A stretch of 64,000 bases of DNA from Bdellovibrionales bacterium (GCA_043757265.1 JAYUQP010000022.1:8683-72682), one strand, 5' to 3'; positions 1 through 54,628 are shown, numbered from the stretch's first letter. Program-made: numbers and translations. The notes: a model not told the origin generated them from the letters alone.

Positions 1-804
1 GATGGTACTGTTCACTCGAATATCAATATTTTTGTAATCCTCTGCTAGCTTGAAAAAATTCCTTGCGTTCTTTTCGACAACATTCCACTTTGAAGGAAAC
101 CGAATATATTCATTTAATCCTCGCAGACCATCAATACTCAGCCAAAGATAAATCTTTTTGTATGAGCGCCATGAATCGAGAATCTTTTCCGCAGGCCAGA
201 CCGTGACATTCGTATAGTATGTTAATTCAATATCAGAGGTCTTTCTCTGATTTAGAAATTTTAATATTTCAAGGTGAACTTTTGACAAGAACGGTTCTCC
301 GCCCACGAATTTGACTTCTGACAACATTGGTAGGCTCTGGAAAAGTTCAATAGAGTCAGTCAGACTCATCGTCTCTTTAACCTGATATGATTTGTTTAAC
401 TTTCTAAATTCGTTCTGAATGGCTGTACTTGATTGGGGGTCACACATTAGACACCGGAGATTACACTGATCTCCTAAAAAAAATTCTAACGATTCAATAT
501 CGTTAACCTTAACTATTTCAGAAGGCAATTCAGGTGGAGCATTCTTCAAATTAGAAACTGTTCGAAGACTTGGAAGGCTTACCGATTCTAATGTTTCACA
601 CTTTACACAACCTGCAATCTTTTTGCCTTCGAAAGAGTCCCGGCGCAGCTTTACTAATTTTTGATCGTTTAAACTATTAGTAAATGAGACTGTATCACTA
701 AGATTTATGAGCGTTATAGGCTCATAAGCGGTAAAGTTGCAACAAGGTACTAATTCTTTACCCGGACGGATGCATGCGTGCTTCCAAAAGTTTGAACATC
801 TCAT
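1..804 (-). CDS. radical SAM enzyme, twitch/SPASM-like family; C-terminus runs off the window start
   Basis: Not in the ORF track because it is open at the window edge. Hand translation of the reverse strand from ATG at 804 gives MRCSNFWKHACIRPGKELVPCCNF... and later LGDQCNLRCLMC, a CxxxCxxC radical-SAM cluster motif. The frame stays open to base 1. Confidence 0.7.
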   Translation of the reverse strand, partial: MRCSNFWKHACIRPGKELVPCCNFTAYEPITLINLSDTVSFTNSLNDQKLVKLRRDSFEGKKIAGCVKCETLESVSLPSLRTVSNLKNAPPELPSEIVKVNDIESLEFFLGDQCNLRCLMCDPQSSTAIQNEFRKLNKSYQVKETMSLTDSIELFQSLPMLSEVKFVGGEPFLSKVHLEILKFLNQRKTSDIELTYYTNVTVWPAEKILDSWRSYKKIYLWLSIDGLRGLNEYIRFPSKWNVVEKNARNFFKLAEDYKNIDIRVNSTI

Positions 805-36303: not shown

Positions 36304-38265
36304 ATGCGAGTTTTGTTGTTCTTAGCTTTTACGGTTTCGGCAGGATCCGCGTTCGCAGATGTTTTACAAGGAATCACGGACCAAATCCAAGACGAGTGGG
36401 AAAACTCAACCCTCAAGGCTCACCCCACTCTAAAAACCGGCTGGAATGTGGGCAGTCTATCTTCTCTTACCGGCCAGATTGGCTATACGTTTTCTGTTTC
36501 GCCCGCCTATGTTCAAGATCGCCATCAACGCGTCGACGCCTATGCAATCAAGCTGGGCGCTCATATTGGCGATGCTCTCGGAGTCGGAAGATCGGCTGAG
36601 GCTCAAATTTCCTTTTCGCGGTTGTTCAATCGAAAAAACCAAGCACTGTTCGCCGCTCCCGTGTCCCCTCGCAGTTTTCCATTCACCGCCGAGACGGCTT
36701 TGCAAAGCCTCGAGCGCGGCTCGGCCGCCCGCCTCGAATTAGCAACCGACGGGCATATTGGCGCAAGCTTTTCTCACATCGCAAACACCGGTCTCGGTGT
36801 GTTCCCCGCACAGTTCAGCGCGGCCGTTCGCCGGGGCACGCGTTACATCATCGATGTTTATCGCTTGGATCAGTACCGCGTGCGTCTTCGCATGGTCGCC
36901 ACCCGCAACATGGGTACGCTCGGCGCAAAAACCAGCGTGACGCCTTTGACTTCGCTCAATTTCGGTTCGGGTTTTGTCGACACTATTTTAAATCAACTTT
37001 TTCGCTGCGACCTCATCTCGATCGAAGGCGAAAAAACAGCCACCAATAAACTTCCGGTGGACAGCATGATGGTGGACTATGTGCTTTATCTAGATGCCCC
37101 ACTTGGCGCCGACAGTTATAATCAATTTTTTGCCCAAATTTTGAATATGGATGTGGTTAATCACCTCCGACTTTTTCAAACACCCGAACAATTTCACAAT
37201 TCGGTTTGGAACTATGCGCAGGTTATCAACAATGCTTACGAGAAGGAAAAACTCGTAGCGGCACCACAGTATCGAATTGTACAGAGGGAATTTATCGGTC
37301 GGACGCTCACAGATTTTCGTAAAATTTCGGTGGGCTCTGGATGCTTTAAACTTTGGGATGTGGACCGCGAAGTGTATCATGGAACATCCGGTGTCCGTTC
37401 GGTGAACGATAATAATCAAATCGAAGATTATTTTTACCTGCGAACTCAGCAATTTCAGGAATTTAATTTTCTCTTTGGACTCTTCGACGAGGAGCATGCC
37501 CTCGAGGTGAACACTCTGTTTCGTGCTCAGCGGCTCGACGAAAAAAATCCCCTCTCGCTCAAACCAGTGGCGCTCTCAGATCTTGTACTGACTCGCTCGT
37601 TCAAGGATAAGAAGTTTTTAGGAAAAGGCACGCTGATCAACGAAATTCGCACGTACCGGAAAGACCTTGAATATCAGTATCCGCAGTTTTTTTCCAACAT
37701 CGACTGGACACAGTACACAAATACAAAACAGTTGGCCTATTCCAAAATCGAAATGATTTTTGACGCCCGCACGGTGACGTTGCTGCGCCAGCAAAACTTT
37801 TCCGAAGATCAGCTGAAACGACTTTTACAAAATTACATCACTCGTTACCCATATAAGAATCATCTTTCCACAACGGATGGCGGCACACACGATGATTCAA
37901 AAACCGGCTTTGAACGTTTTAAAAAAGACACAGCCGTTATTGCTCGTCGCCTCACCCTGATATTTACGCCAGGGACCACAGTTGAAGTGGCAGTAAAGGC
38001 ATTTAGTTCCCTGCGGAAGAATGCGTTGTTTCAAGATGTGGGCGCAGGCTTCGTTCTGACCTTGCTTCCGCAGAATCAAGTTCGAGATCTTGTAGAAGCG
38101 ACATTAACGATTGGTGCGAAAGACACACCCACAATCGAAATTGTAAGCCACTCGGCTGGCATGTCCCACCTCTACAAACAGGTGGAACATATCCTCAACA
38201 CCATCAACGACAGAAGCTTTGATCTACGCCTGCACAAAGAGATCGGCCCCGTTCAAGATCAATAA
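36304..38265 (+). CDS. secreted hypothetical protein
   Basis: 653 aa with signal peptide MRVLLFLAFTVSAGSAFA/D. No motif recognised. Confidence 0.5.
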   Translation: MRVLLFLAFTVSAGSAFADVLQGITDQIQDEWENSTLKAHPTLKTGWNVGSLSSLTGQIGYTFSVSPAYVQDRHQRVDAYAIKLGAHIGDALGVGRSAEAQISFSRLFNRKNQALFAAPVSPRSFPFTAETALQSLERGSAARLELATDGHIGASFSHIANTGLGVFPAQFSAAVRRGTRYIIDVYRLDQYRVRLRMVATRNMGTLGAKTSVTPLTSLNFGSGFVDTILNQLFRCDLISIEGEKTATNKLPVDSMMVDYVLYLDAPLGADSYNQFFAQILNMDVVNHLRLFQTPEQFHNSVWNYAQVINNAYEKEKLVAAPQYRIVQREFIGRTLTDFRKISVGSGCFKLWDVDREVYHGTSGVRSVNDNNQIEDYFYLRTQQFQEFNFLFGLFDEEHALEVNTLFRAQRLDEKNPLSLKPVALSDLVLTRSFKDKKFLGKGTLINEIRTYRKDLEYQYPQFFSNIDWTQYTNTKQLAYSKIEMIFDARTVTLLRQQNFSEDQLKRLLQNYITRYPYKNHLSTTDGGTHDDSKTGFERFKKDTAVIARRLTLIFTPGTTVEVAVKAFSSLRKNALFQDVGAGFVLTLLPQNQVRDLVEATLTIGAKDTPTIEIVSHSAGMSHLYKQVEHILNTINDRSFDLRLHKEIGPVQDQ

Positions 38266-38429
38266 AGCAAAAAGTACTTCGAATCTAATATAGCAAAAGG
38301 TACTTCGTACTTTTTGTGTTCGAGCAGAAGTTACGGCGCACTTTTTCAGGACGCGATTACTGGTTGTGCGTAAAGAGGAGTTGGTGCCGGAATAAACAGG
38401 ACCTGGCACCGGATTTCCCTGAATACCGA

Positions 38430-38912
38430 TTACCGGCCGATTGTGACCGGTTCGTCTAAGGCTGCTCCACCCGATGCAGGTGCAGTCGTTGTTGTGGTTC
38501 CGCCGTTTTCGCGTTCACACTGTCTTTGACCAGCGGCTTGACCGATGGCTCCGCCAATCATGCCGCCAAAAAGTAATAAAAAGAGAGGTGGTGGTACGGC
38601 GTGGGCGCGCGGAATAAAGATCGCTTCCAAGGCAGCCGATTTTTTCCCACCGGCTCTGTAAGCCATCTGTGTCTTGTCGTACACAGACTCAAGAGTGTCG
38701 GTGTTTTTAAAGATCACATCTTTGCCGTTCAACTTAAAATGAGTGCTACCAACTCTTTCGACGGTGAGGGTTTCGCCTTTGTAAACAAGCTCGGTCATTT
38801 TATTGTTGATACTGGTGATTGTAAAATCCTTCAGACCCATGGCTTGAATCGGCGCTGCCGACGCCACCGTTTGGCTTAAAAAAATCATCGTTACTAAAAT
38901 TGCCTTAATCAT
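38430..38912 (-). CDS. small exported protein with a C-terminal TM segment, hypothetical
   Basis: Signal peptide MIKAILVTMIFLSQTVASA/A. The C-terminal 'PPPLFLLLFGGMIGGAIGQAAG' is hydrophobic and is followed by a Thr-rich tail. Confidence 0.45.
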   Translation of the reverse strand: MIKAILVTMIFLSQTVASAAPIQAMGLKDFTITSINNKMTELVYKGETLTVERVGSTHFKLNGKDVIFKNTDTLESVYDKTQMAYRAGGKKSAALEAIFIPRAHAVPPPLFLLLFGGMIGGAIGQAAGQRQCERENGGTTTTTAPASGGAALDEPVTIGR

Positions 38913-38958
38913 TTTTGCTCCCTATCGTGCCACTTCAAGCTTTCGCTCACGGCCGTTA

Positions 38959-40335
38959 TTAAATGTCAAAAAACGTATACGTTTTATTCGCAATCAACTC
39001 GTGAATTTGCCCATCAAACGGTGTCGCAAGCGGCGTCGATACGCCATTCTGTAACTGAAAAAGATAGCCATCTTCTGTCAGCCCTAGTGTTACGCTACCA
39101 GATTTATAAATGCGTTTAAAGGCCTGGTCATACTGAAGGCTTGAAGTTTTCATGTAGGGGTTCTTCTTGGCGTCGCAACCGAACTCGACGATAGACCCGT
39201 TATCCATCTGCATATAGCCCACGAGGCTCAATTTGTCGTACCCATTCGGGTAAATGATCGAAGTCGGAGTGCCCGAAGTGATGCTTTGTTCTACTTTTGT
39301 TCCGCTGCCGTACGGATCGCAAACAAACCGCACCTTATCCAGGGTGACTTTCGCCGACCATAAACCACCGTAGTGAATGCCAACAAGCTTAGCTTTTTCC
39401 TCGGGAGTTTGGTTATTGTACTCAACAGCATCGGCTCCAGCCGGTTGGTTTAACTGCCCTTCGTCTTTGGTAAAAACGTAGGTCGCAGGAAGAGTTTTAT
39501 CATCTGGAAAGAGCACATAATAATCACGACGAATCGCGATCTGTCCAAGATGCGGCGAAGAACCCTGCCTGGTGATTTTCGGAGTGGCTTGATCGAAGAC
39601 TAATTTATGAAATCCTAGGTCTTTATTCAAAACCAAAAAGTCTGGCGAAAAACTAATGCTCACTGGAAATTCAAAAGCCTCAAATGCATACACCAACGCG
39701 GAAGCTTTTGAGTAGGCCTTCATCGCTGGATGCACGTTTTGCGAGTATCGCGCGATCTGTGCGTAGGTTTCCACCGTTACGGCATATGAACCCGAGTCAG
39801 TAATGCGCGTGTCACACGCCCCTTGGATTCCTTTTCGAGGACCGTTCGTACACGTAGTGTGCGGAAATCCATCGATGTGTCGCGCCTCGTGCATATAAAC
39901 GCTTGCACTATCTAATGCCGAAAACGCATCCGACAGCATCAGCGGACACACATACATAGTCTTACTACCAAAGGTCGGCATTACAAAAGCACCGGCGCCT
40001 TTAGGGCAGTTCGCCTGGATATTGAACTTGTTAATTCTACCGGTAAAATAGGTCCACCAGTTTGTGGCAAATTTTCCGGAGAACATTTGATCTTTGCTCA
40101 CTGGCATTGATGCGTCGAATTTTGTATCGCGCATAAACATAATTCCAGCCATCAAGCGTGAAATGTCTGTATTGTCATAGCAATATTCTTTACCCGCTAA
40201 ATTTTGAAACTGGGTAAATTTTTTGGCAATCTCGCTCATATCAGCTGCAGATATGCACTCGGCTGCTTGAACACTTGCTGTTAATATTTGAACACTAAAG
40301 AATAGTCCGAATAGGACGCGTTTTGAAAAATCCAT
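38959..40335 (-). CDS. secreted protein with HExxH motif (putative zinc metalloprotease)
   Basis: Signal peptide ...FFSVQILTASVQA/A. 'SVYMHEARHIDGFPH' gives HExxH plus a downstream His. The RBS is AGAGGGGGA. Confidence 0.45.
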   Translation of the reverse strand: MDFSKRVLFGLFFSVQILTASVQAAECISAADMSEIAKKFTQFQNLAGKEYCYDNTDISRLMAGIMFMRDTKFDASMPVSKDQMFSGKFATNWWTYFTGRINKFNIQANCPKGAGAFVMPTFGSKTMYVCPLMLSDAFSALDSASVYMHEARHIDGFPHTTCTNGPRKGIQGACDTRITDSGSYAVTVETYAQIARYSQNVHPAMKAYSKASALVYAFEAFEFPVSISFSPDFLVLNKDLGFHKLVFDQATPKITRQGSSPHLGQIAIRRDYYVLFPDDKTLPATYVFTKDEGQLNQPAGADAVEYNNQTPEEKAKLVGIHYGGLWSAKVTLDKVRFVCDPYGSGTKVEQSITSGTPTSIIYPNGYDKLSLVGYMQMDNGSIVEFGCDAKKNPYMKTSSLQYDQAFKRIYKSGSVTLGLTEDGYLFQLQNGVSTPLATPFDGQIHELIANKTYTFFDI

Positions 40336-40450: not shown

Positions 40451-41140
40451 TCAGAGTTCTGATTGCAATTCGGACTGCTTACGCTGCGCGTAGTTTTTCA
40501 CTGTCATGTCGTCTTGTCGATTGATAATTTTGCGAAGCTCATCAATTCGCAAGCTCAACGGACGATCGCTTTCGGCAATGGCATCAATGGCGATGATGGC
40601 TTTAGCGCGCTCTTGATTATTTTGTAATTCTTGAATCGAATGTGGTTCTGCAGGCTCGCCATTCACCGGTCGCGAGGCCACTTCGCTCAAGCTACCAAAT
40701 GTTGCGTCTCCGCCGAGCGATAGCAAGTAGGTCGCAAGAATCCTTTCGTTATGGGACGCCGAAGAATTTGTTACTGCTCTTTTCAAAAACTCAATCTGTG
40801 GCGCCGTAAAAACCTTTGCTGCCTGACGAAGCTCAGCCTCCTTTAAATTAACATCAAGATGGATTGAACTCATCTGCTTGATCTCTTCGCGAAACCACCC
40901 ATTAAATTTTGCACCCACCCCGGCATCATTCAAATTTGCAGGGCTCCGATCTAAATTCGACTTTTGCTGTATTTGTGCTGACTCGTTTTCTTCAGACTCA
41001 TTTGTTTTAAAGTAGTCTGAGGTTTCGACGATAACTTCGCCGACTGTCTTCTTCTTATCGATCACGAACCGATTAAAGGATGTTGCCGCCACAACGATCA
41101 ACAAAACCACCGCAAAATAAAGCAAAAGACGCTTCATCAT
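40451..41140 (-). CDS. membrane-anchored hypothetical protein
   Basis: 229 aa with N-terminal TM MMKRLLLYFAVVLLIVVAATSF. It starts 2 nt after the rhodanese gene stop. Confidence 0.45.
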   Translation of the reverse strand: MMKRLLLYFAVVLLIVVAATSFNRFVIDKKKTVGEVIVETSDYFKTNESEENESAQIQQKSNLDRSPANLNDAGVGAKFNGWFREEIKQMSSIHLDVNLKEAELRQAAKVFTAPQIEFLKRAVTNSSASHNERILATYLLSLGGDATFGSLSEVASRPVNGEPAEPHSIQELQNNQERAKAIIAIDAIAESDRPLSLRIDELRKIINRQDDMTVKNYAQRKQSELQSEL

Positions 41141-42627: not shown

Positions 42628-43266
42628 TTGCTACAATTTTCATCACTCTTTTTATCGTTATCATTGTTGTGCACTCAAAGTTTTGCGGCCGACGGGATCG
42701 GGACGAATTCGCAAGGGACTGGAGCGAACGGAATCGACGCGCATATGACCGACGCGCACGGCACGGGCGCACAAACAACCAACGCGCACTGGACGGACGG
42801 GTATGAGCTCACCACCTTGCAAATCAACTTGCTCCTAAAATGGGAAGGCGAACAAAAGTTTGACCACGAAAAACTTGTGGGCTTCGCCAAAAGTTTCGAG
42901 AAGCACAATCTTAAAGCAGAACCCTATGTACCTCCTCACACGTTTGCCGAACTTATCGAAGTATCAGCATGGGCTGAGGGCGCAGCTTTCGCGACATTTG
43001 CTGAATATGCAGGTTACACGTTCGACAACGAGGCCTACAACGCCGCTTGCCCCAACCGTGTGCTGTTTAATTTCGGCTATGCCACAGGCAAGGAATACTT
43101 TCGGGTTGATGTTCTTGTTCAGTACATGAGTCTGTTTGATTCATTGCAAATTACCTATGCACTACATCCTTCGACCTTTCCGCAGAAGTATTTGGAGTTA
43201 GCCAAATCCCGCGGCTTCGACGTGTATTTGAGAACCGCCGTCGAGATGGCGCAAAACTCGTATTAG
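42628..43266 (+). CDS. secreted hypothetical protein (TTG start)
   Basis: AGGGGGCTG lies 2 nt upstream of the TTG. Signal peptide MLQFSSLFLSLSLLCTQSFA/A, followed by a degenerate T(D/N)AH repeat. Confidence 0.45.
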   Translation: MLQFSSLFLSLSLLCTQSFAADGIGTNSQGTGANGIDAHMTDAHGTGAQTTNAHWTDGYELTTLQINLLLKWEGEQKFDHEKLVGFAKSFEKHNLKAEPYVPPHTFAELIEVSAWAEGAAFATFAEYAGYTFDNEAYNAACPNRVLFNFGYATGKEYFRVDVLVQYMSLFDSLQITYALHPSTFPQKYLELAKSRGFDVYLRTAVEMAQNSY

Positions 43267-43583
43267 AGAGTGCGCTGTACTTTAAAGTTGGTTTTCGTCT
43301 GGTTTCAATTGAGAGATACTTTTGTTAACCACAGAGCCAAACGGCGAAAGTACTATATAACCCATCGCGTAGAATTGCCGAGCTAAACACACAGAATTTT
43401 CGAGCTGAAAAGCCAATTCCCCTCAGTTTCTTCAGATTGTAGTCAATTCTAAAAACATTAAAATATTTTCAATTCTCCGCATAGTTTTGAATCATTTGCA
43501 GAGGGTTGGTAACGCATTAACTTATCTAAAATAAGTCAATGTTCGGGGTTTGATTACGGCTTTTTTTATGTTGGGGAATTATC

Positions 43584-46500
43584 ATGAAAGTTCAAAAAAT
43601 ACGCTTTGCAGCCTGTTCGCAATTTCTTTTCTTATTTTTGTTTGCCCAATCATTTGCCGATATCAATGAATCGTCGGCGCTAAAAACCTACAAAGAACGG
43701 CTGCGAGTGATAGAAAACAGCCTTAATCCTGCCGAAATGTACGAGGCGACGAAAGATCTTGTACCAACCAACGAATCTTTCGAAATCCTAAAACAGACCC
43801 TGGCACATCTTCCCGACCGACACAATAACGGCGACTTCGAGAAAGCTTTCAATCCAGAAAATACGATTATGATTCTTCTGGAGGCTTTTGAAAAACATGC
43901 CTCTTCCGTAGACATCGAACTCCTTGCCGATCTCAATCGATGGGCAGATCTTTCCCACCTCGAAGAAGTTGTGCAGCAAAAGATAATTCAAACTGCTATT
44001 TACCTCAAAAATATAAGCTCGGCACGCAAGCTTGTTTCGATGAATACCCTATACCCCTCAAGCGGAATACGCCCTTCCCCGACCACACTTCGCCTTGCAG
44101 GACCAAGTCCACAAAAAATCAGTGATGCACACCAATCCGCATTGATTGAAATTGAGCGCTTTTACCGGAGCATGAAAGATCGCGTTGTTGGACAAGATGA
44201 TATTCTTAAATCCTTCCGCTCCCTTTACATCAGTGACCTTATTAGCGGAGGTCGCCGTATTGAGCCAGAAGTTTTTTATCTGATGGGTCTTCCTGGGAAT
44301 GGCAAAGACACCATCGCCGAGGCCTATATTGATGCTCTTTGGAATATGCGAGACGCTCACGTTTCGCATATGTATCGCATCAACATTCGCACTAAAGAAG
44401 AAGCGTGGAGTTTATTTGGTTCTAGCAAGGGATACGTCGGCTCAGCTGACCTCCCCAGTTTCTTAAAGTTCTTGGTTGAGCACTCGGGCGGTAAATACAT
44501 ATTGGGCAGCGAGGCGACACCTCAAGGGACCCGAACTATTGTCGAAAAAAATACGACATGGAAGGCTGACGAATTCACTTTAAGAGCCCCGTCCCATAAG
44601 GCTGTTATTTTTGTAAACGAAGCTCACAATATCCCTCGTGCAGTAAAGGACAATATTCTCAAACAAGCCATCGAACGTGGTATTTTTCCAATCACCAATC
44701 CAGGCTCCACTCCCAACGCTGTTTCGCAAATTCAACTGCCCGTAACTTTTATCTTCGCATCCAACGAGGGAATTGATCTGCTCGAACCGCGCGAAAAAAA
44801 CGGAGCGCGCCTTGGTAAACCTTTATCCTTTGATCGTTTGCTTGAAAATTATGAACGCGTCTTTAAAGATAAAGAACGCCTGAAACAAGCAATCATGAAG
44901 GGCAATGGCGAGCTCAATAATCCAAATCATCCGGATCAACCAGGAACCTCAGAAGAGTTTCTCAATCGTTTCCCTGACCATCGCGTTCACCTGTTACGTC
45001 CACTCAGCCCAGAAAACCTCCAGCGGATCGCTGAAATATTAATTAAAGCTGAAAGTAACAAACTTAAAAATGCGAGCGGACGCCTTGGACAATACACCGT
45101 CACATTGTCAGAGGAAGCCATTCGCTTTATCACTCAATATGATTCTATTCCTTCTGAAAACTCTCGTCCGATCAAGGCTCGACTGAAAAGTTTTGTCTTT
45201 GATGAAATTTTTCAGGCCATTGAAAGCAAAGAAATTAAACCATCTTCGCTTGTCCAAGATATTTACGTCGACATTCAACTCAATCCGGATGGCTCACGCT
45301 CCGCTCATTTTAAAATCACTGATTCAAATCCAACCTCTTATGAGTTTTGGAGCGTTATCGATCAAACCCTCAAAGATGTTCCCCAGGAACCCTTGTCACG
45401 AGACCGCATAGAGGCAATTTTAAAAATGCGTCAACAAATTCTCGATAATGTGTTCGGTGTTGAACACATCGTCGATAAGCTAATTGAGGCCGCGATTGTT
45501 TCCGAAAGCGAATCACGCAATGCCGGTGAGTCAAAAAGGCCTGCCACGGTGATGGCTTTTTTAGGTAAAACTTCCACTGGAAAAACAGAGACCGCAAAAC
45601 AGTACGTAAAAGCTCGCTATGGAACTCACGAACGGCTTGAAACAATCGACTTCAATGGGATCCGCGATCTCCAAGCGATGAACGCAAGAATTCTTGGCAC
45701 CTTTGATGCGCGAAATAATCCTATCGCCTCAGATTTCATGAAGGCCTACGACCGTGCTCCCGATGGAAATATTGCATTTATCTTTGATGAGGCCGCAAAT
45801 TCACCAAGGGAGTTGTTAAAAGGTCTGTATGAGATTTTGCGAGAACCGGTTGTTTCTGGTTTTTCTGACGGAAAGCCACGTCCCATGAAAAATGTAACTA
45901 TTATTTTGACGGGCAATGCCGGTGAACAAATCTACAACTTGATTCCAAAAGATCTTCCAACCGATGTTTACGAACGCGCCATGCGCGAGGTCTTTCGAAT
46001 TTTCCTGAATAACGCCGACCTCCAGCAACGAATTTTAGCAGAGACTTTCCCAGACGCGTTCATTGCGCGTCTGGGAAATAATGTTTATCATTTCGGCCCC
46101 TTGAAAGACTCAGGCAAGCGGCAAGTGGCGCAGTTGAAACTCCTCAAGGGACTTGAAGGACTAAAGCCTAAAAACAGTGAGCGTGGCTGGAATATGGTCT
46201 TTGCTAAAGAGTCCGATATTTTAGACCTCTTCGACCTTATCGAAAAAGAAGGGTTTAACAGTGCCCACCAGGGCGCCTCGATCGACTCCTTTGTTCGGCT
46301 TTCCATCATTGATAAAATCAAAGCCAAACTGCTGAGTGAAAATGTCGCTAATGGACAAGATGTCATGATTGAAGTTGCGAAAGAATCTATCGTACGGTCC
46401 GACCGCGACGTTTCAAATTCCTTTAGACACATGAAAATTATCACCGAAGCTGGTCAAGAATTTATCGTCGAAATCCCAATTTCGAAAAGAACGACTTCGA

Positions 46501-47624
46501 TGGCGGTTAGCGACGTGGATCGAATTTTAACGGCCTATCACGAAGTGGGCCATGAGATTGTTTCAGAAGTTTATTTTGGTGATCGCGTACGCCCGAAATA
46601 TATTTCGATCATCGAAGGCGTGACTCTTATTGGAGCTTCCTTTGTCCACTACGCAGGAATCCGCGTCGGGCAACCCCTTTCCGCCGGTCCGCGCACAAAA
46701 CAGGTTGTTCTTCGCGAAGCTGCTGTTTTGTATGGTGGCTATGTGGCCCAGCAGCTGGTTACGATAGGAGGTCGTCATGACTCTGGGAAAAAGAATGATT
46801 TCCATCGTGCCACACGACTTATTCAAAATGCCATTCTTCGCGATGGACTCTCGGACGAGTGGGGGAAAAGGTCCATTCCAGACAACGTAAAAACTGGCGA
46901 CTACATTGATCAAGAACTTTCTCCCGAGGAAAAAGCCAAACTCAATCACATCACAGATCGTTGGATGAGCTACGCTGAGCAATTTGCACGCGAAGCTTTA
47001 TATGTGAACATGGATCGACTTTTTGTGGTTCTCGGCAAGCGTCTTTCGGAAAAAGGTTTCCTAGATCAAAAAGCAATTTCTGAAATTCACGATCGATTTT
47101 CTCCGGTCACTGAAAGAACAGTAGACTTTGCCGGCAAATTAGATGAAGTGCGCAAAGTCATCGCACTTATTGAGCAGAGCGGGGCTAACGTAGGATCGGT
47201 TCTTGAAAACAAATTCCGCACAAGAGCCTACAGCGTTGATAACGCCCACGAGGCCTTTAACCTAGTAATGAAAGCGTCGAGGAAAGCAGGTTTATTTGAA
47301 AAAGTCCGTACGTACTTTTTTCCTCCCTGGGATAAATTGACGGAGCTTCAAAAAACTGTTGCGGCCTCTTACCTTGGAAACAAAATATCTGATTTGAGTC
47401 GTGATGCACGCATCGCCGGCGAATACTGGATGCCAGAATCTGTTGCCAACATTGATGAAATCATCAAAGAAGAGCGCCTTCGCGAAACTCGTCCCGTCAC
47501 TGATTTAGCTCGCTTTGAAATCTTAAAACAAGATTTAATGGTTTCGGAAGAGACCATCGAAGACATTCAAAGATCAGTCACCCAAAAATCAACAGCGGCG
47601 CTTTCTTGTAAAAACATTTTCTGA
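43584..47624 (+). CDS. fusion protein: export-type N-terminus, two Clp/Hsp100 D2-type AAA+ modules and a C-terminal FtsH-type M41 zinc peptidase
   Basis: 1346 aa. Module 1 has 'GLPGNGKD' and 'IFVNEAH' (degenerate Walker A/B). Module 2 has 'GKTSTGKT' and 'FIFDEA' (canonical). The C-terminus 'TAYHEVGHEIV...ISIIEGVTLIG...LYGGYVAQQLV...KKNDFHRATRLIQNAI' parallels FtsH M41. Confidence 0.8.
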   Translation: MKVQKIRFAACSQFLFLFLFAQSFADINESSALKTYKERLRVIENSLNPAEMYEATKDLVPTNESFEILKQTLAHLPDRHNNGDFEKAFNPENTIMILLEAFEKHASSVDIELLADLNRWADLSHLEEVVQQKIIQTAIYLKNISSARKLVSMNTLYPSSGIRPSPTTLRLAGPSPQKISDAHQSALIEIERFYRSMKDRVVGQDDILKSFRSLYISDLISGGRRIEPEVFYLMGLPGNGKDTIAEAYIDALWNMRDAHVSHMYRINIRTKEEAWSLFGSSKGYVGSADLPSFLKFLVEHSGGKYILGSEATPQGTRTIVEKNTTWKADEFTLRAPSHKAVIFVNEAHNIPRAVKDNILKQAIERGIFPITNPGSTPNAVSQIQLPVTFIFASNEGIDLLEPREKNGARLGKPLSFDRLLENYERVFKDKERLKQAIMKGNGELNNPNHPDQPGTSEEFLNRFPDHRVHLLRPLSPENLQRIAEILIKAESNKLKNASGRLGQYTVTLSEEAIRFITQYDSIPSENSRPIKARLKSFVFDEIFQAIESKEIKPSSLVQDIYVDIQLNPDGSRSAHFKITDSNPTSYEFWSVIDQTLKDVPQEPLSRDRIEAILKMRQQILDNVFGVEHIVDKLIEAAIVSESESRNAGESKRPATVMAFLGKTSTGKTETAKQYVKARYGTHERLETIDFNGIRDLQAMNARILGTFDARNNPIASDFMKAYDRAPDGNIAFIFDEAANSPRELLKGLYEILREPVVSGFSDGKPRPMKNVTIILTGNAGEQIYNLIPKDLPTDVYERAMREVFRIFLNNADLQQRILAETFPDAFIARLGNNVYHFGPLKDSGKRQVAQLKLLKGLEGLKPKNSERGWNMVFAKESDILDLFDLIEKEGFNSAHQGASIDSFVRLSIIDKIKAKLLSENVANGQDVMIEVAKESIVRSDRDVSNSFRHMKIITEAGQEFIVEIPISKRTTSMAVSDVDRILTAYHEVGHEIVSEVYFGDRVRPKYISIIEGVTLIGASFVHYAGIRVGQPLSAGPRTKQVVLREAAVLYGGYVAQQLVTIGGRHDSGKKNDFHRATRLIQNAILRDGLSDEWGKRSIPDNVKTGDYIDQELSPEEKAKLNHITDRWMSYAEQFAREALYVNMDRLFVVLGKRLSEKGFLDQKAISEIHDRFSPVTERTVDFAGKLDEVRKVIALIEQSGANVGSVLENKFRTRAYSVDNAHEAFNLVMKASRKAGLFEKVRTYFFPPWDKLTELQKTVAASYLGNKISDLSRDARIAGEYWMPESVANIDEIIKEERLRETRPVTDLARFEILKQDLMVSEETIEDIQRSVTQKSTAALSCKNIF

Positions 47625-47761: not shown

Positions 47762-49003
47762 TTAAGGTACGTAAGCTATGGTGTTTCTCGTGGTGTAACC
47801 TAAATCAGTGCATGCCGTGACATAAATTGAAGCCATAAAGCGATTTGTCGTCGGATTCCAACATCTGTACAAGGGTTTAGTCGCGAACAAAGTGGCAACG
47901 GTGGATGCGTATCCGATCAAGCTTGCCGTTTCCGTCGTTGAATTACAGCCCGTTGCAATCCGAGTATTTTTAGTTGTATTTATTTGACAGTTAAAAAGAG
48001 CCGTCGAATTTTGCGGTAGCGCCTGGTTGTAAGCTCGAAAGCTTATAGTCTCTGCTACATAAAGGACAGGAGTCGCCGCTCCGTCAGGCAAAAACAGATA
48101 AAATTTTGAAGCCGGGTTTTGAAACTTTCGGATGTTTCTTTGACCTGTGGGAGCAGCGCCGGCTATTTGGTAAGGCTTAGGTCCGTACATTTGATAGACG
48201 TATCGTTTGTCCTCAGAACTTAATGCTCCTCTCACTGTAACCGCTGTTCCGATAATATCATCGTATTGGCCACTGGGAGTAAATATCGTTTGCAAGCCCG
48301 GTTTAGAGCCACTGTTTTTAGTGTAATGCATAATTGAATAATAATCGTAGGGGCCCGACCGAGTTATTTCTATAGCGCTATAAATGTCGAATGCCGCAAT
48401 CGACTCGGTTCGAACATTGTTGAATTCAACTCGAATATAGCTATTGCGGTCTGGTCTTGCATGTTCGTGAATAAGGCCAAGTAAATGGCCGAATTCGTGT
48501 TGGATGATGCCACCATTAGGTGCCGTAAAACAACGGGCCGGATCTAAATTTATGTACGCAACGTTTGTTGTCGTTTTAAACCCATAGGTCGAACTGCAAC
48601 GACCGGTTTCACGAAAAATGTATACGATCGGTGTTGGTTCAGAGCTCTGCCATCCTGCTGACACGATACATTTTAAATTGGCCCACTTAGCCCATGCATT
48701 ACAGGCGGCAATAATCGTCGTTCGCTCAGCTGAAGTAAACTCACTGTGAATCCACATTCGTACTTCGCCGTTAGGCCACCTTGGTGCTGTGGCGAGTTTT
48801 GCTTTACCATCGAGGCCAGTTTGGTTTTCATCAAAGATGTACATATCGTCGCCGACAAGAGTCGTTCCTATTTGTTGCTCTGCAAGGCCCATCGAACCAG
48901 CAATCGACGAAGTCGTCGCATCTCTCCCACAATTGTTAAAGAGCGGAAAAAAAACGAAGCTGAAACCAGCCATCAGCATGACAAGTATGTTTTTCTTATG
49001 CAT
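47762..49003 (-). CDS. astacin-family (M12A) zinc metalloprotease lipoprotein with a C-terminal repeat domain
   Basis: Lipobox-like FPLFNN/CGRD. 'HEFGHLLGLIHEHARPDRNSYI' is the astacin HExxHxxGxxHE signature and 'YYSIMHY' is the Met-turn. The C-terminal ~150 aa has three 'YR.(W/Y)N...' repeats. Confidence 0.85.
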   Translation of the reverse strand: MHKKNILVMLMAGFSFVFFPLFNNCGRDATTSSIAGSMGLAEQQIGTTLVGDDMYIFDENQTGLDGKAKLATAPRWPNGEVRMWIHSEFTSAERTTIIAACNAWAKWANLKCIVSAGWQSSEPTPIVYIFRETGRCSSTYGFKTTTNVAYINLDPARCFTAPNGGIIQHEFGHLLGLIHEHARPDRNSYIRVEFNNVRTESIAAFDIYSAIEITRSGPYDYYSIMHYTKNSGSKPGLQTIFTPSGQYDDIIGTAVTVRGALSSEDKRYVYQMYGPKPYQIAGAAPTGQRNIRKFQNPASKFYLFLPDGAATPVLYVAETISFRAYNQALPQNSTALFNCQINTTKNTRIATGCNSTTETASLIGYASTVATLFATKPLYRCWNPTTNRFMASIYVTACTDLGYTTRNTIAYVP

Positions 49004-51565: not shown

Positions 51566-52771
51566 TTAGTACCGTGGACCCGTATTAGAACTTCCAGGCC
51601 GCTTCGGCGATGCGTTTTGTAACTGCGAAAGATCCTTGAATTTTGCAAGACTCGCTTTTACACGCTCTGCCATATCCGGAATAAGTTGTATATCGGGATG
51701 GGACGAAAGGGCCAAGTGCTCAAGTTGTGCATAGCACTTGATCGCCACGGGCGAATGCGGAGAGTTCTCGATACAAGTTTCTAAATAATGTTCTCCAAGT
51801 TTCCATACATCCACAGTCTTAAGCGCTTCGGCCGTGACTCCCGCAAAATACAAAGCCGACGAATATCCAGCCCCCTCTCGAGAACTTTCAAGCAACTCGT
51901 GCAAGATTCCGGATGCCCGTAAGTAAATCATAAATCCCGATTGATTTTGGGCATACTTTGGGGACCTTGCTTGGTCTAATAATCTTTTAACAAACTCTAA
52001 TTTTTTCGGGCTCTTAACGGATTGTTTATCTTCCATCTGCCAATCTTTTAGACTCGTAAGCCACGCCTTCATATCAACCATGAGATACGCTGGAAGGTTC
52101 TTCGCTGATAGAGCTAAGCTTACTAATTTTTGCGCCCGCGGAAGATCCTGTTGCACGCGGACCATCACTGCGAGATCTTTTTGAAGTGATAACATCCACA
52201 TGTTGGGATCGGCTAAAAGTATAGAATCATTTTGGATAATTTTTTCTGTTTCTAAGTGAGCCGTTTCGTACTGACGATTGGCAAGGTAGTAAGTAATTTT
52301 TTGCGTGGAGTTGAGGTGCGAAAGGTTGCTTGCCCACGGCAAAGGAAAATTTTTGCTCCCACGGTCGGCACGGCTATGGCAACTGATGCAATAGTTACCA
52401 AGATGCGAAAGCGTATAATGGGCCGGCCGCAGTTTAGCGCTATCCAGAGATTGACTCGCAGCTTTTAACTCGTTTGAAAACTCCTCTGCTGTAAATGCAA
52501 TTATTGGATCGGCGTTTGGTGCGGTGGTGTCTTTGGTCATTTCAACGGAGGCCTTCATCATTTCGTTGGTTTTTTCGCGAATAAAGGAAAGGTTTTTGGG
52601 ATCATAAAATTCTTTGGGATCCGCTAAGATTGGAGTGAGCGCCGAATGATTCACCGATAACCGGTGCATGGTTTCGTACCAACTGGCACCTCCAGTGGCA
52701 CTTTTTGACGAATTGTCCGTAGTGCATCCTAAGAAAAAACTGATTATGAGAGATAGACGTAAAACGCGCAT
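51566..52771 (-). CDS. lipoprotein with CxxCH heme-binding motif and helical-repeat C-terminal region
   Basis: Lipobox SFFLG/CTTD. 'LGNYCISCHSRADRG' carries the CxxCH motif, followed by a TPR-like helical region. Confidence 0.5.
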   Translation of the reverse strand: MRVLRLSLIISFFLGCTTDNSSKSATGGASWYETMHRLSVNHSALTPILADPKEFYDPKNLSFIREKTNEMMKASVEMTKDTTAPNADPIIAFTAEEFSNELKAASQSLDSAKLRPAHYTLSHLGNYCISCHSRADRGSKNFPLPWASNLSHLNSTQKITYYLANRQYETAHLETEKIIQNDSILLADPNMWMLSLQKDLAVMVRVQQDLPRAQKLVSLALSAKNLPAYLMVDMKAWLTSLKDWQMEDKQSVKSPKKLEFVKRLLDQARSPKYAQNQSGFMIYLRASGILHELLESSREGAGYSSALYFAGVTAEALKTVDVWKLGEHYLETCIENSPHSPVAIKCYAQLEHLALSSHPDIQLIPDMAERVKASLAKFKDLSQLQNASPKRPGSSNTGPRY

Positions 52772-52957: not shown

Positions 52958-54628
52958 CTACGGCTGCACACATCGCCGCGCATTGGTCAGATATTGCATG
53001 GGTTGATCCAGAACTCGGTTATTGCAGTACACCTGATTGTTTGGCGCATCGGTCGATTCACGATGAAGGTAAATCAGCATTCGATCAGGACTGGTGTTGT
53101 TGAGCTCGCCAGTATTATTGTCGAAAATATTAAAATTTCCCTGCCCCGGAGTTAAAACGATCTGCTTAAAACCCCGCACAGGAGTGTTTCGACCCATGTT
53201 GTTTTTAATAACCCAATAGTTGCCTTTGATATTGACCCACGACTCGGCAGAGTTTACTTGCGAGATACCACGCCCATCAAACTGATTGCCTTCGATAAGA
53301 CCTCGCGACGTAAACTCTTTGATGTCGATGTGCTCAGCTGTGATTCCCGGTCCAAATTGATTATTTAAAATCTGATTGTAATCACTGGCGTCTTCGATGC
53401 CTTTGTTGAGAGAAGATCCGATGTAAACTCCCTCGCCAATACCTTCCGCACCCCGTTCAAGTCCGGTGTTGTAAAACCGGCTATTTTCGATCACGTTATG
53501 GTGACTCCACAGCATAAGATGGAGAGCTTCGTGTCCCACATCGTGGACCACGAGGCGTTCGAAGCGGCTGAAGTTTGTCCCCTCGGCCATGAGACCTTTC
53601 ATCCCTAGCGAAAAATCAATTTGTGAAACACGAACGTACTGACTATTTTTTAAAGTTAAAATTCTTTTTCCAGAAGTCGCACCGGGACCTACGATTTTTG
53701 CAGCGCCATCACCACACAAGGTGATCATTTTTGTACTTGTGCCGCGCAGATTTTCGAACACCACCGAATCTAGAAGATAAGTTCCTGCAGCAAGGACAAA
53801 TAAATCTCCAGCCACTGCACGTGTTGGGAGCGCCCGTAAATCTGCAACATTCGAGATGACAATTTTTCGATCATGCGGGTAACGATCGCAACTTGAGGAC
53901 GTGGGCGGAGGCGGAGGAGTTATCGGCGGTAGAGGCTGCTGCGGGAGGACCGTACAGGCTGCAAAAGAATGGGCCGTATTCCCACCGAGAACTCCGTTTG
54001 TGCAAGTGCGATTGCTGCTAACACAAGTAGCGCCAAAACTGACTGTGCCACTGGCATAGGCTACAACTGAGGAATTGTGCGCAACCGTTTGCCCATTGAA
54101 TGTACAGGCAAGGGGTGCATCTACGGAGCAGCTAGATCTGGTATAAGTGCCACTGAGAATTCCATCATTGCAACGTCTTTGCTCTTGCATGCAGACCTGC
54201 CCGTAGACCACTCGGCTCGAGAGATACGCACCCACAGTTGCATCATGTGCAATTGTTCTTGTGTTGAATAGACAGGAATTTTTACTTTCTGGAAGGGTGC
54301 TGCAGCTTGCGAAGCCAAAAGAGCCAGAGAGAACTCCACCAGAGCAGGTGCGAGTTTCTTTTTGCGCACAGCTAGCGGAAACGCTTACCTGGTACGCCTC
54401 GACCGATGCACCGTCTGCCAACACCGACCCATTGAATAAGCATTGCAGTACGGTTGGCTCCTTGATTACCGGCTCGGTAATGACAGGCATGCATGTTTCA
54501 CCCTCGCAGCTGTTCTGGCTCTCTGAAGAACTTGTGAAAGTCTCATAGCCTTGACCGCAGTTTTGGAAGGGTAAAAAACAAACCAGAACTAAGATGATGA
54601 TAAAGCTTTTTTTTCTGATTCTACGCAT
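52958..54628 (-). CDS. lipoprotein with three Cys-rich ~50-aa repeats, a Pro-rich linker and a right-handed parallel beta-helix domain
   Basis: FQNC lipobox (LPFQN/CGQG). Repeats follow 'C.FNG..(A/V).(D/H).(A/S).V.AY......C....R.C..G.LSG....SC'. The linker is 'PLPPITPPPPPT'. PbH1-like turns are 'NSRFYNTG', 'NNQFGPGITAEHIDI' and 'GNQFDGRG'. Confidence 0.65.
   Translation of the reverse strand: MRRIRKKSFIIILVLVCFLPFQNCGQGYETFTSSSESQNSCEGETCMPVITEPVIKEPTVLQCLFNGSVLADGASVEAYQVSVSASCAQKETRTCSGGVLSGSFGFASCSTLPESKNSCLFNTRTIAHDATVGAYLSSRVVYGQVCMQEQRRCNDGILSGTYTRSSCSVDAPLACTFNGQTVAHNSSVVAYASGTVSFGATCVSSNRTCTNGVLGGNTAHSFAACTVLPQQPLPPITPPPPPTSSSCDRYPHDRKIVISNVADLRALPTRAVAGDLFVLAAGTYLLDSVVFENLRGTSTKMITLCGDGAAKIVGPGATSGKRILTLKNSQYVRVSQIDFSLGMKGLMAEGTNFSRFERLVVHDVGHEALHLMLWSHHNVIENSRFYNTGLERGAEGIGEGVYIGSSLNKGIEDASDYNQILNNQFGPGITAEHIDIKEFTSRGLIEGNQFDGRGISQVNSAESWVNIKGNYWVIKNNMGRNTPVRGFKQIVLTPGQGNFNIFDNNTGELNNTSPDRMLIYLHRESTDAPNNQVYCNNRVLDQPMQYLTNARRCVQP

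Follow-up and report, generated by a model that had tools for sequence, protein, structure and literature searches.

In FtsH (MEROPS M41; TIGR01241) and the m-AAA enzymes exemplified by AFG3L2, an M41 peptidase lies in cis behind a AAA+ module, and FtsH itself uses a classic-clade AAA motor (PF00004) and is tethered by two TM helices that flank a periplasmic domain. Clp ATPases recruit ClpP as a separate protease. The i-AAA enzyme Yme1/YME1L joins a single classic AAA module to M41 and stays anchored in the membrane with its catalytic domains facing a periplasm-equivalent compartment, the intermembrane space, which gets ATP through porins. To our knowledge, all characterised bacterial AAA+ proteases face the cytoplasm and, as far as we know, the eukaryotic torsins, which reside in the ER lumen, are alone among well-known AAA+ groups in having a signal peptide and acting outside the cytosol. 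Here we describe a gene from a Bdellovibrionales bacterium (GCA_043757265.1 JAYUQP010000022.1:8683-72682; draft assembly of 133 contigs), located in a window (the whole stretch of DNA analysed) of 64,000 nt, which encodes two AAA+ modules of the ClpB NBD2 type and an M41 peptidase behind a predicted signal peptide (Table 1).

Table 1. Features of the protease gene and its product (coordinates counted from the first nucleotide of the window)
Feature	Residues	Coordinates	Strand	Basis or remark
Upstream spacer, 317 bp		43267..43583	+	G+C 0.37 vs 0.44 for window
Whole gene	1-1346	43584..47624	+	1346-aa precursor, stop codon included; mature protein about 149 kDa
Predicted Sec-type signal peptide	1-25	43584..43658	+	sequence rules, family statistics
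Helical N-terminal domain and linker	26-174	43659..44105	+	AF2 model; differs between subfamilies
AAA+ module 1, ClpB NBD2 type	175-595	44106..45368	+	motifs, searches, AF2 fold
Module 1 Walker A GLPGNGKDT	235-243			
Module 1 pore loop GYVG	283-286			
Module 1 Walker B VIFVNE	341-346			
Module 1 sensor-1; Arg finger; sensor-2	N394; R462; R528			
Module 1 D2-small lid	474-555			
AAA+ module 2, ClpB NBD2 type	596-965	45369..46478	+	motifs, searches, AF2 fold
Module 2 Walker A GKTSTGKTE	661-669			
Module 2 Walker B FIFDE	732-736			
Module 2 sensor-1; Arg finger	N778; R829			
Peptidase M41 domain	974-1168	46503..47087	+	Pfam PF01434, 52.6 bits vs 29.9-bit cut-off
M41 zinc site; third ligand	H986-E987-x-x-H990; D1072			
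Helical C-terminal extension, family-specific	1169-1340	47088..47603	+	conservation, AF2 model
Cys tail S-C-K-N-I-F	1341-1346	47604..47621	+	conservation counts

A previous sequence-only reading of the window had proposed that a single uninterrupted ORF encodes an export-type leader, a double Clp/Hsp100-type AAA+ stack and, fused in cis, an M41 peptidase. This proposal was borne out: the ORF begins with an ATG preceded by a GGGGA-like RBS, every motif quoted in that reading lies where it had been placed, and the domains are shown by Pfam, family profiles and AlphaFold2 (AF2) folds. The draft state of the assembly was the one observation found in favour of regarding the ORF as an artefact, arising from a chimeric assembly or from separate genes run together. 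Against this, the full-length architecture recurs in more than 110 cluster representatives drawn from independent assemblies and many sources, the homologue matches are free of internal stop codons and the stretch is present in four sediment metagenome runs. Furthermore, purifying selection extends along the entire ORF, with dN/dS values of 0.042 for the whole gene compared to its closest orthologue (87% identical) and of 0.02-0.04 in each AAA+ module and in M41. We therefore consider the likelihood of an artefact to be virtually nil, and an assembly fusion was rejected on the strength of the identical layout of these independent homologues. The AT-rich upstream spacer previously noticed is indeed present and is presumed to be the gene's own promoter region; no promoter-like site above chance level was detected on its + strand. 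A downstream astacin gene was likewise confirmed; however, neither this gene nor that of the 212-aa protein, to which the same reading had turned for context, is a conserved neighbour, and no gene neighbours are conserved in the relatives.

The assignment of the C-terminal domain to the FtsH-type M41 peptidases, with HExxH and a downstream Asp, was upheld by a Pfam match above the cut-off, and none of 111 sequences (23-88% identity) deviates at H986, E987, H990 or D1072. Of the further Pfam matches that had been anticipated, AAA_2 (residues 653-785, 18.4 bits) and ClpB_D2-small (474-555, 16.5 bits) were obtained from the single sequence only below threshold. Further comparisons place both modules with the Clp/Hsp100 proteins: family profiles gave E-values of 1e-26 to 1e-30 for ClpB/Hsp104 and of 1e-24 for FtsH, and the M41 profile matches the protease domains of FtsH and YME1. 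In searches against PDB sequences residues 164-296 match the NBD2 of Hsp104 and residues 598-807 that of ClpB, and the NCBIfam ClpB model matches residues 598-936 (E 5e-18). In two AF2 models (pLDDT 93.6 and 93.8), both modules superimpose on ClpB NBD2 by Foldseek with target-normalised TM-scores of 0.71-0.81, and module 2 together with M41 aligns to FtsH/AFG3L2 over about 560-620 columns. The N-terminal domain is all-helical in the model and aligns weakly, by family profile, to the stretch preceding NBD2 in ClpB/ClpC; the linker (residues 163-171), residues 1327-1338 and the C-terminal tail are of low confidence. The C-terminal extension carries a conserved R-D-A ... P-x-x-V-A-x-I stretch and, with a dN/dS of 0.106, is the least constrained part of the protein.

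The two modules depart from the canonical AAA+ site in different ways. Module 1, which also contains a three-stranded beta domain, had been recognised as following the Clp D2 block, in agreement with the profile and structural matches above, but had also been read as a degenerate pseudo-ATPase, since Asp replaces the Walker A Thr and Asn the Walker B Asp compared to canonical sites. Conservation argues against the latter. Across 29 sequences G235, G240, K241, D242 and N394 are invariant and T243, Y284, N345, E346, H348, R462 and R528 are kept in at least 90%, the dN/dS of the module (0.033) indicates strong purifying selection, and the GYVG loop, both sensors and the Arg finger are kept. Module 1 is thus not decayed, and its deviant GKD/NE motifs are, by sequence comparison, a conserved property of the family. 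Module 2, which had been called canonical, is so in its Walker A and B motifs, sensor 1 and Arg finger; however, a conserved N-P-I stretch occupies the GYVG position, leaving it without an aromatic pore loop, and the sensor-2 position (QGASI) has Ser in place of Arg. That neither module is fully canonical would fit an exported protease or holdase that works independently of ATP and uses its AAA+ modules as an oligomerisation scaffold and substrate-binding platform, as would a periplasm with no known ATP. We consider such an enzyme very unlikely, because none of the 111 sequences departs from G661, K667, E736, N778 and R829 of module 2, among them the Walker A Lys, Walker B Glu, sensor-1 Asn and Arg finger (D735 is at least 90% conserved), and because the dN/dS of this module (0.021) is the lowest of the whole protein, a degree of conservation not expected of a scaffold.

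The leader comprises a basic n-region (K2, K5 and R7), a hydrophobic core and S-F-A ahead of a predicted cleavage site between A25 and D26; in a rule-based check it fits the pattern for cleavable Sec signals, which asks for a basic n-region, a hydrophobic core of 7-15 residues and small residues at -3 and -1. The same type of N-terminus is present in 102 of 112 family members, in which the net charge is +2.7 before the hydrophobic stretch and -0.9 after it, with A/S/G at -1 and A/S/V at -3. Residues 8-25 form the only hydrophobic segment, and no second TM-like segment was seen, the highest 19-residue hydropathy beyond residue 70 being 1.32. The previous suggestion of an export-type leader in place of the two-TM anchor of FtsH is thus supported by the single segment, the positive-inside bias and the small residues, and the leader is predicted to be a cleavable Sec-type signal peptide. 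Alternatively, it could be an uncleaved signal anchor that holds the protease on the predator's inner membrane in the topology of Yme1, with the AAA+ and M41 domains in the periplasm, where they would clear away or remodel envelope proteins of the predator itself with ATP reaching the periplasm during feeding. A single hydrophobic segment with positive charges in front of it would indeed orient the protein N-in, C-out, the M41 profile also matches YME1, and FtsH-family enzymes are as a rule membrane-tethered. Nevertheless, we regard an anchor as unlikely: across the family the uncharged stretch, c-region included, is short (median only 19 residues) and in most members ends in the small residues at -1 and -3 that cleaved signals typically show, and an anchored enzyme would face the same problem of ATP supply as an exported one. 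The charge bias is, moreover, the opposite of that required for an N-out anchor. This bears on the possibility that the protein resides in the predator's cytoplasm, its N-terminus being an N-out anchor or not used, and, driven by a Clp-type motor, serves as a protease of the FtsH kind in quality control or regulation. Its need for ATP would be most easily met there, and the orientation of the characterised bacterial enzymes counts in favour of this location; the retention of a signal-like N-terminus in more than 100 members and in a sister group counts against it, and we consider it quite unlikely.

The extreme C-terminus has a feature on which the sequence-only reading did not comment. The mature protein has a single Cys, C1342, which is shared by all of 29 sequences and by at least 90% of 111, within a family tail pattern [S/T]-C-x-x-hydrophobic-[L/F]. 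Of 152 superfamily members, 142 have their last Cys 3-14 residues before the C-terminus, 120 of these 142 tails fit C-x-x-hydrophobic-[LFIMY], and exactly one Cys is present in the mature part of 75 of 112 members. A mature protein that is nearly Cys-free apart from one conserved terminal Cys is as expected in an oxidising compartment and is difficult to reconcile with a cytoplasmic location. The same tail occurs in the same genome on unrelated signal-peptide proteins, including an ATP-dependent Amidoligase_2 enzyme, a 5'-nucleotidase-like and a trypsin-like protein. Amidoligase homologues down to 27% identity keep the tail, the signal peptide and the single Cys, as does a second unrelated family. 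This recurrence points to an undescribed C-terminal tag, and our reading is that exported proteins share it for sorting, anchoring or latency; no NCBIfam model matches it. That soluble-looking enzymes carry it suggests a common fate beyond the inner membrane, which argues further against a signal anchor. A CaaX box was rejected, as it has exactly three residues after the Cys. MYXO-CTERM and its relatives are presented, in bioRxiv 10.1101/2023.06.07.544157 and PMC11980579, as tripartite signals that combine a Cys motif with a transmembrane helix and a basic cluster. The likeness consists of an invariant near-C-terminal Cys that, in a single lineage, occurs on Sec-exported proteins from many unrelated families; in contrast, the 3-14 residues that follow the Cys here leave no room for a TM helix, and the tail is not tripartite.

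We next considered the distribution of the family. Searches returned about 80 full-length homologues and 112 representatives at E <= 1e-30. The named relatives are all Bdellovibrionota MAGs, in line with the earlier suggestion of a predator-like genome, and as far as seen from sequence the family is uncharacterised and restricted to this phylum. Since all members come from uncultured MAGs, the predatory lifestyle is assumed from taxonomy. Occurrence is patchy (26 of 301 phylum genomes), and among these genomes no member was found in the 18 of genus g10; if g10 is, as we presume, the well-studied Bdellovibrio genus, predation does not generally require the protein. A sister group (30 of 301), not mentioned previously, has an extra ClpB-D1-like module, giving three modules, and also keeps a signal-like N-terminus. 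The genome analysed here also encodes a 657-aa FtsH with the two-TM pattern, ClpP and four AAA_2 ATPases, with ClpXP, ClpA/B-like ATPases and HslU all represented, which together with the patchy occurrence indicates that the protein is accessory and not housekeeping; this equipment also counts against a further protease in the cytoplasm.

Overall, the best explanation as a whole, to which we give about an even chance, is an accessory, self-contained ATP-dependent protease that is exported through Sec and unfolds and digests folded prey proteins. The precursor would be cut after Ala25, and the mature chains would assemble, by analogy with ClpB, FtsH and Lon, into a hexamer in which two AAA+ rings sit one upon the other on top of an M41 ring. 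Module 1 would grip the substrate with its GYVG tyrosine loops and bind nucleotide via its charge-swapped site, module 2 would be the main ATP-hydrolysing motor, and the unfolded chain would be fed into the HExxH/Asp zinc sites and cut. This division of labour between the rings is guesswork, given the missing aromatic pore loop and sensor-2 Arg of module 2 and the Asn in the Walker B motif of module 1. With its ATPase residues so strictly conserved, the enzyme must have access to ATP at its site of action; if a bacterial predator exports it, this suggests the prey cell itself or the compartment, derived from the prey, that surrounds the predator while it feeds. In short, we infer export, hexamer formation and action on prey. 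We know of no ATP in the bacterial periplasm and of no route for a 149-kDa protein into the prey cytoplasm, which count against an exported ATP-driven protease and against delivery into prey, respectively. Prey-derived ATP near the predator is nevertheless plausible: the reference list of PMC13689555 includes a title (Ruby and McCabe 1986) that names an ATP transport system in B. bacteriovorus 109J. A bolder proposal, which we regard as doubtful, is that predatory Bdellovibrionota export a set of Cys-tagged enzymes, otherwise free of Cys, that includes a 0.9-MDa double-ring Clp-type unfoldase-M41 protease, delivered to the prey and run on prey ATP. If true, this would be the first bacterial AAA+ protease to work outside its producer's cytoplasm, and the tag would mark out a sorting or anchoring pathway not known before, along with a whole list of effectors aimed at prey.

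In comparison with known systems, the protein shares with FtsH and AFG3L2 an M41 domain with HExxH and an Asp ligand in cis behind a AAA+ module, but differs from FtsH in its two ClpB-NBD2-type modules with no match to PF00004, in its one cleavable-looking leader and in its extra 170-residue C-extension plus Cys tail. With ClpB/Hsp104 and ClpA/ClpC it has in common the NBD2 fold and D2-small lid of both modules and, in module 1, the pore loop and an Arg finger in an F-L-N-R context; however, there is no Clp_N and no NBD1 match, two NBD2-type modules stand in tandem with the departures from the ClpB site described above, and the protease is fused. Scores of 43.6 bits against the 600-bit equivalog cut-off of TIGR01241 and of 64.7 bits against the 1232-bit cut-off of TIGR03346 (ClpB) agree with the sequence-only reading that the architecture falls outside characterised families. 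Torsins are likewise Clp/Hsp100-related and have a non-canonical Walker A (GKN), and residues 612-679 give a weak Torsin match in Pfam that lies below the cut-off (19.7 vs 27 bits); in contrast, torsins have one module and neither an Arg finger nor a protease domain. Yme1 combines AAA+ and M41 behind one N-terminal hydrophobic segment, as here, and although it has a single classic module and keeps its anchor, it provides a precedent for the predicted N-in/C-out orientation.

The 1346-aa protein is encoded by an uninterrupted ORF with an ATG start behind a GGGGA-like ribosome-binding stretch, and combines an N-terminal leader with two AAA+ modules (module 1, residues 175-595; module 2, residues 596-965), an M41 peptidase domain and a short cysteine tail. 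When the single sequence was compared with Pfam, Peptidase_M41 matched residues 974-1168 at 52.6 bits (curated cut-off 29.9 bits); the other two domains expected in the sequence-only reading, AAA_2 (residues 653-785, 18.4 bits) and ClpB_D2-small (residues 474-555, 16.5 bits), stayed below their cut-offs, as did Torsin. The NCBIfam models for ClpB (residues 598-936, E 5e-18) and FtsH (residues 966-1163) aligned with 64.7 and 43.6 bits against equivalog cut-offs of 1232 and 600, respectively, and a PDB sequence search placed Hsp104 NBD2 on residues 164-296, ClpB NBD2 on 598-807 and FtsH on 950-1126. A word-indexed search returned ~80 full-length relatives of 1250-1430 aa (87-30% identity), rarely named and then as ‘hypothetical protein’, ‘AAA family ATPase’ or ‘ClpA’ (JGI). 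When 1.8 billion cluster representatives were scanned exhaustively with HMMER, residues 560-1346 as query matched 112 of them at E <= 1e-30; almost all of these are 1200-1470 aa long, and the match lies at a constant position. Since the same layout recurs across this family, a chimera or assembly fusion has virtually no probability as the source of the ORF, which is accordingly a genuine gene of a large family. The gene is under purifying selection: compared with its 87%-identical orthologue (L015), dN/dS was 0.042 overall, with synonymous sites near saturation, and 0.033, 0.021 and 0.035 in module 1, module 2 and the M41 domain, 0.061 in the leader and N-domain and 0.106 in the C-terminal extension.

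We assessed motif conservation in a 29-member alignment (87-27% identity) and in two deep alignments. The motifs cited in the sequence-only reading were all present where it had placed them. In module 1, the Walker A motif reads G-L-P-G-x-G-K-D-T (G235, G240, K241 and D242 invariant, T243 nearly so) and the Walker B motif h-h-h-h-N-E (N345, E346 and H348 at least 90% conserved); the module retains a pore loop as in ClpB, G-Y-V-G, in which G283 is invariant and Y284 conserved to at least 90%, together with an invariant sensor-1 N394, an Arg finger (R462 in F-L-N-R) and a sensor-2 Arg (R528 in A-R-P-I). Given this conservation, the GKD and NE deviations are a fixed feature and not decay. The two changes are paired: Asp replaces Thr behind the P-loop Lys, and Asn replaces Asp in Walker B. 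Together they shift the acidic group and leave the net charge of the Mg site as it was, which we infer to be a sign of retained nucleotide binding. Module 2 is canonical in Walker A (G661...G666-K667-T668-E669), Walker B (D735-E736), sensor 1 (N778) and Arg finger (R829), with G661, K667, E736, N778 and R829 invariant in 111 sequences and G666, T668 and D735 at least 90% conserved. At its GYVG position there is a conserved N-P-I stretch with no aromatic residue, and at its sensor-2 position, Q-G-A-S-I, Ser replaces Arg, so neither ring is fully canonical. The earlier description of a pseudo-ATPase plus a canonical ATPase is thus oversimplified: it holds for the Walker motifs, sensor 1 and Arg finger of module 2, and not for decay of module 1 or full canonicity of module 2. 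In the M41 domain the catalytic residues are intact: H986, E987, H990 and D1072, the FtsH-type zinc ligands and catalytic Glu established for M41, are invariant in 111 sequences, and an active metalloprotease is to be expected.

Two AlphaFold2 models, built from family alignments of 109 and 111 sequences, were both confident (mean pLDDT 93.6 for residues 26-600; mean pLDDT 93.8 and pTM 0.88 for residues 560-1346). Using Foldseek, both AAA+ modules were placed on NBD2 of ClpB, ClpC, Hsp104 and Skd3, with TM-scores of 0.71-0.81 normalised to isolated T. thermophilus ClpB NBD2, and module 2 together with the M41 domain aligned with FtsH and AFG3L2 over ~560-620 columns. Family profiles likewise matched ClpB/Hsp104 (E 1e-26 to 1e-30) and FtsH protease domains (~1e-24). 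BLASTP of module 1 against module 2 gave no significant match, so the kinship of the modules rests on profiles and folds. In the models, each AAA+ module is closed by a D2-small lid and a small three-stranded sheet; residues 26-165 are all-helical and align by profile with the ClpB/ClpC stretch before NBD2, and residues 1169-1340 form a family-specific helical extension, of which 1327-1338 are of low confidence.

In the leader (residues 1-25), three basic residues and a hydrophobic core are followed by S-F-A, just ahead of Asp26. A strong hydrophobic window near the N-terminus occurs in 102 of the 112 family members, and another TM-like window in only 3. The mean net charge of the family is +2.7 before this window and -0.9 over the next 15 residues; the uncharged stretch spans 19 residues at the median, with A, S or G as best fit at position -1 and A, S, V, L or T at position -3. 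This pattern makes a cleaved Sec signal with N-in/C-out orientation a well-founded prediction and bears out the earlier view of an export-type leader, with a single hydrophobic window and signal-like charge bias in contrast to the two-TM anchor of FtsH. An FtsH-like role in the cytoplasm is decidedly unlikely, as the charge pattern of the leader is the opposite of that required by a cytoplasm-facing anchor. A periplasmic protease tethered in the manner of Yme1 would share the N-in/C-out orientation, and YME1 was among the profile matches; set beside the signal-like -1 and -3 residues, we regard it as unlikely. A lipoprotein variant of the leader was set aside, with one plausible case in 152 sequences.

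Absent from the sequence-only reading is the cysteine tail (residues 1341-1346): the last Cys lies 3-14 residues from the C-terminus in 142 of 152 superfamily proteins, C-x-x-[ILVMFAY]-[LFIMY] fits 120 of these 142, and Ser or Thr usually precedes the Cys. All 29 members of the smaller alignment have C1342, and in the 111-sequence alignment its conservation is at least 90%. The mature part contains a median of exactly one Cys, where ~13 would be expected for its length in this genome, and the tail Cys is the sole one in 75 of the 112 members. The genome of the window has an excess of signal-peptide-like proteins whose only Cys lies 3-12 residues from the end (11 observed, 4.7 expected; Poisson p ~0.009), whereas proteins without a signal-like N-terminus show no such excess (8 against 8.0 expected). 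In eight of the 11 the tail reads C-x-x-[ILV]-F with 0-8 residues behind it. Their Pfam matches comprise Amidoligase_2 (ATP-dependent as a family), a DAO-type FAD oxidoreductase, a metallophosphatase/5’-nucleotidase, a weak trypsin-like protein and a DUF7790 protein, with several unmatched. Homologues of the amidoligase (L112-L122; 11 genomes, 5 genera, identity down to 27%) all have a signal peptide and end in a similarly built tail, and in nearly all of them the mature part has just one Cys. The amidoligase is the second enzyme here that looks exported and is expected to depend on ATP. A second unrelated family (381-aa) shows this pattern of leader, single Cys and tail in three genomes. Apart from the amidoligase, about ten signal-peptide proteins of this genome that have one or two Cys carry C-x-x-[ILV]-F plus 0-8 residues at the C-terminus, among them the 5'-nucleotidase-like, DAO, trypsin-like and DUF7790 proteins and unmatched ones; a fragment that ends S-C-K-E-L-F (G000:C88:2-673) was ruled not to be a second copy of the gene. 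The C-x-x-[ILV]-F ending looks like an undescribed C-terminal tag, and we conclude from these sequences that the Cys tail is probably a tag, of unassigned chemistry, common to several exported-looking proteins. It is too short for the tripartite MYXO-CTERM signal and is not a CaaX box, and no NCBIfam model matches it. The genome encodes one Rce1-like CPBP and no ICMT; CPBP proteins are common in control genomes, so this presence says nothing on CaaX-like processing. Capping of the M41 zinc by the tail Cys (a ‘cysteine switch’) was considered as a possible role; the modelled tail is of low confidence.

The weaker matches of the 1.8-billion-representative scan (E 1e-16 to 1e-26; 1370-1540 aa) form a sister group that shares the leader, the M41 domain and the Cys tail but has three Walker A motifs (P0215, P0223, P0229, P0236, P0237, P0240, P0244 and P0247; loci L105-L110). 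The first of the three modules is ClpB-D1-like (G-E-A-G-V-G-K-T-A, h-h-h-h-D-E), the middle module is NBD2-like with a normal GK[ST] and a Walker B h-h-h-h-N-E, and the third is an NBD2 with Walker B D-E. P0215 shares 23% identity with the 1346-aa protein over 783 residues. The sister type was found in 30 of 301 phylum genomes, partly of different families, and both types in two. Given the D1-like module of its sister group, the 1346-aa family looks like a derivative that lost D1, in which the Walker B Asn would predate the Walker A Asp. The ESM Atlas cluster of the protein (‘hypothetical protein’, 68 members) is from Bdellovibrionota, and its feature neighbours are unnamed proteins with M41 and a ClpB_D2-small lid from phages, Campylobacterota and Pseudomonadota, in clusters of 580-720 aa mostly labelled Uroviricota and of 790-900 aa in the latter two phyla; tblastn against phage records gave two weak FtsH-like matches only. 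This suggests, as a lead only, that families other than the 1346-aa one also join M41 to a motor that is not of FtsH type.

In a species-representative genome collection, the named full-length relatives were all Bdellovibrionota MAGs (Bdellovibrionales, Pseudobdellovibrionaceae, Bacteriovoracaceae, Oligoflexales/Oligoflexia), and all matches in other phyla were plain FtsH protease domains. The gene is patchy within the phylum (26 of 301 sampled genomes at E <= 1e-60) and, by the same search, absent from 18 of 18 genomes of one genus (g10), presumed to be Bdellovibrio proper. The window’s genome (2.98 Mb, 133 contigs, 96% complete) also encodes an ordinary FtsH (657 aa, two TM segments, GSPGTGKT, HEAGH), a ClpP adjoining a ClpX-sized AAA_2 gene, and further AAA_2 proteins, two large (840- and 783-aa ORFs) and one HslU-sized; this makes the 1346-aa protein an accessory enzyme. 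The stretch was found in four sediment-metagenome DNA runs of a single study, and no RNA dataset was listed. The gene has its own 317-bp upstream spacer of lower GC, as noted earlier, and a promoter and terminator scan gave matches no better than chance; the inverted repeat picked up by the terminator scan (14 bp, perfect-looking, 8 G-C pairs) is probably coincidental. Its neighbours encode a 212-aa protein that has a signal peptide and matches nothing in Pfam, a convergent astacin, DUF1543, a rhodanese, a DbpA-type helicase and a DTW protein. The first two had been pointed out before and are present. None of these neighbours of the gene recurs in 52 related loci; an operon or partner gene was dropped as an explanation, as ORF clustering found at most 7 of these loci sharing any neighbour family, and the gene appears to act alone. 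The region around the astacin gene is rich in secreted, function-unassigned proteins. The 556-aa signal-peptide protein in the window, which likewise has a Cys close to its C-terminus, does not match the tail motif at the hydrophobic-[L/F] positions.

Locations of the gene and associated features (G000, the window’s own genome; C-numbers, its contigs)
Feature	Location	Strand	Remarks
Gene of the 1346-aa protein	window 43584..47624	+	
Inverted repeat	window 46046-46078	+	within module 2 Arg-finger coding stretch
Signal-peptide proteins without Pfam match (653, 458, 229, 212, 401 aa)	window 36304-40335, 40451-41140, 42628-43266, 51566-52771		
Astacin	window 47762-49003		adjoins Pfam-less signal-peptide proteins
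556-aa signal-peptide protein	window 52958-54628	-	Cys-repeat-rich; Cys four residues from C-terminus (R-R-C-V-Q-P)
Amidoligase_2 protein (L101)	G000:C124:40792-41973	-	signal peptide, single Cys, tail Q-C-R-Q-V-F-A-K
C-x-x-[ILV]-F tail protein	G000:C15:201-1850		
C-x-x-[ILV]-F tail protein	G000:C31:23311-24714		
C-x-x-[ILV]-F tail protein	G000:C35:12685-14169		
C-x-x-[ILV]-F tail protein	G000:C53:19915-20778		
C-x-x-[ILV]-F tail protein	G000:C67:53508-54635		
C-x-x-[ILV]-F tail protein	G000:C89:55213-56382		
C-x-x-[ILV]-F tail protein	G000:C91:91753-92898		
C-x-x-[ILV]-F tail protein	G000:C119:1491-2522		
C-x-x-[ILV]-F tail protein	G000:C88:2-673		fragment

To our knowledge, characterised bacterial AAA+ proteases all work in, or face, the cytoplasm, because ATP is there. 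Strict ATPase conservation and a secretion signal in one family challenge this rule: because of that conservation, an exported enzyme would have to meet ATP outside the cytoplasm. An exported protease that works independently of ATP would agree with the leader and is highly improbable in view of the same residues. The amidoligase, from a second ATP-dependent family with leader and tail, points the same way. An ATP transport system of B. bacteriovorus 109J is recorded in a title (Ruby and McCabe 1986, in PMC13689555), which makes prey-derived ATP beyond the predator’s inner membrane plausible. We give an even chance to an exported ATP-dependent unfoldase-protease that acts outside the predator’s cytoplasm on prey-derived ATP. 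By analogy with ClpB, FtsH and Lon, such an enzyme would be a hexamer with two AAA+ rings on top of an M41 ring and would pass its substrate through an axial channel, with module 1 as a gripper, via its Tyr loops, module 2 as the chief ATP-hydrolysing motor and peptide cleavage at the M41 zinc sites. Its site of work, as judged from the leader, would be outside the predator’s cytoplasm, and its ATP would come from the prey cell or from prey contents released round the feeding predator, as no other source is obvious.

No paper that describes the family, an exported bacterial AAA+ protease or the tail turned up in a literature search; the predicted location is unusual for an AAA+ protease, and the C-terminal tag may itself be new. 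The protein offers a specific and testable possible answer to how predatory bacteria break down the folded proteins of their prey, and the single-Cys tail, if a new tag, could list the exported ‘toolkit’ of uncultured predators from their genomes. The family also amounts to a natural motor-swap experiment, in which two Clp-NBD2 rings, one with a charge-swapped nucleotide site and the other without an aromatic pore loop, would feed a fused M41 ring. Overall, the 1346-aa protein resembles FtsH and Lon in that an unfoldase is fused to a peptidase, yet it differs from FtsH in motor type, membrane anchor and equivalog score, and from ClpB in domain set and score, and by these comparisons belongs to neither.
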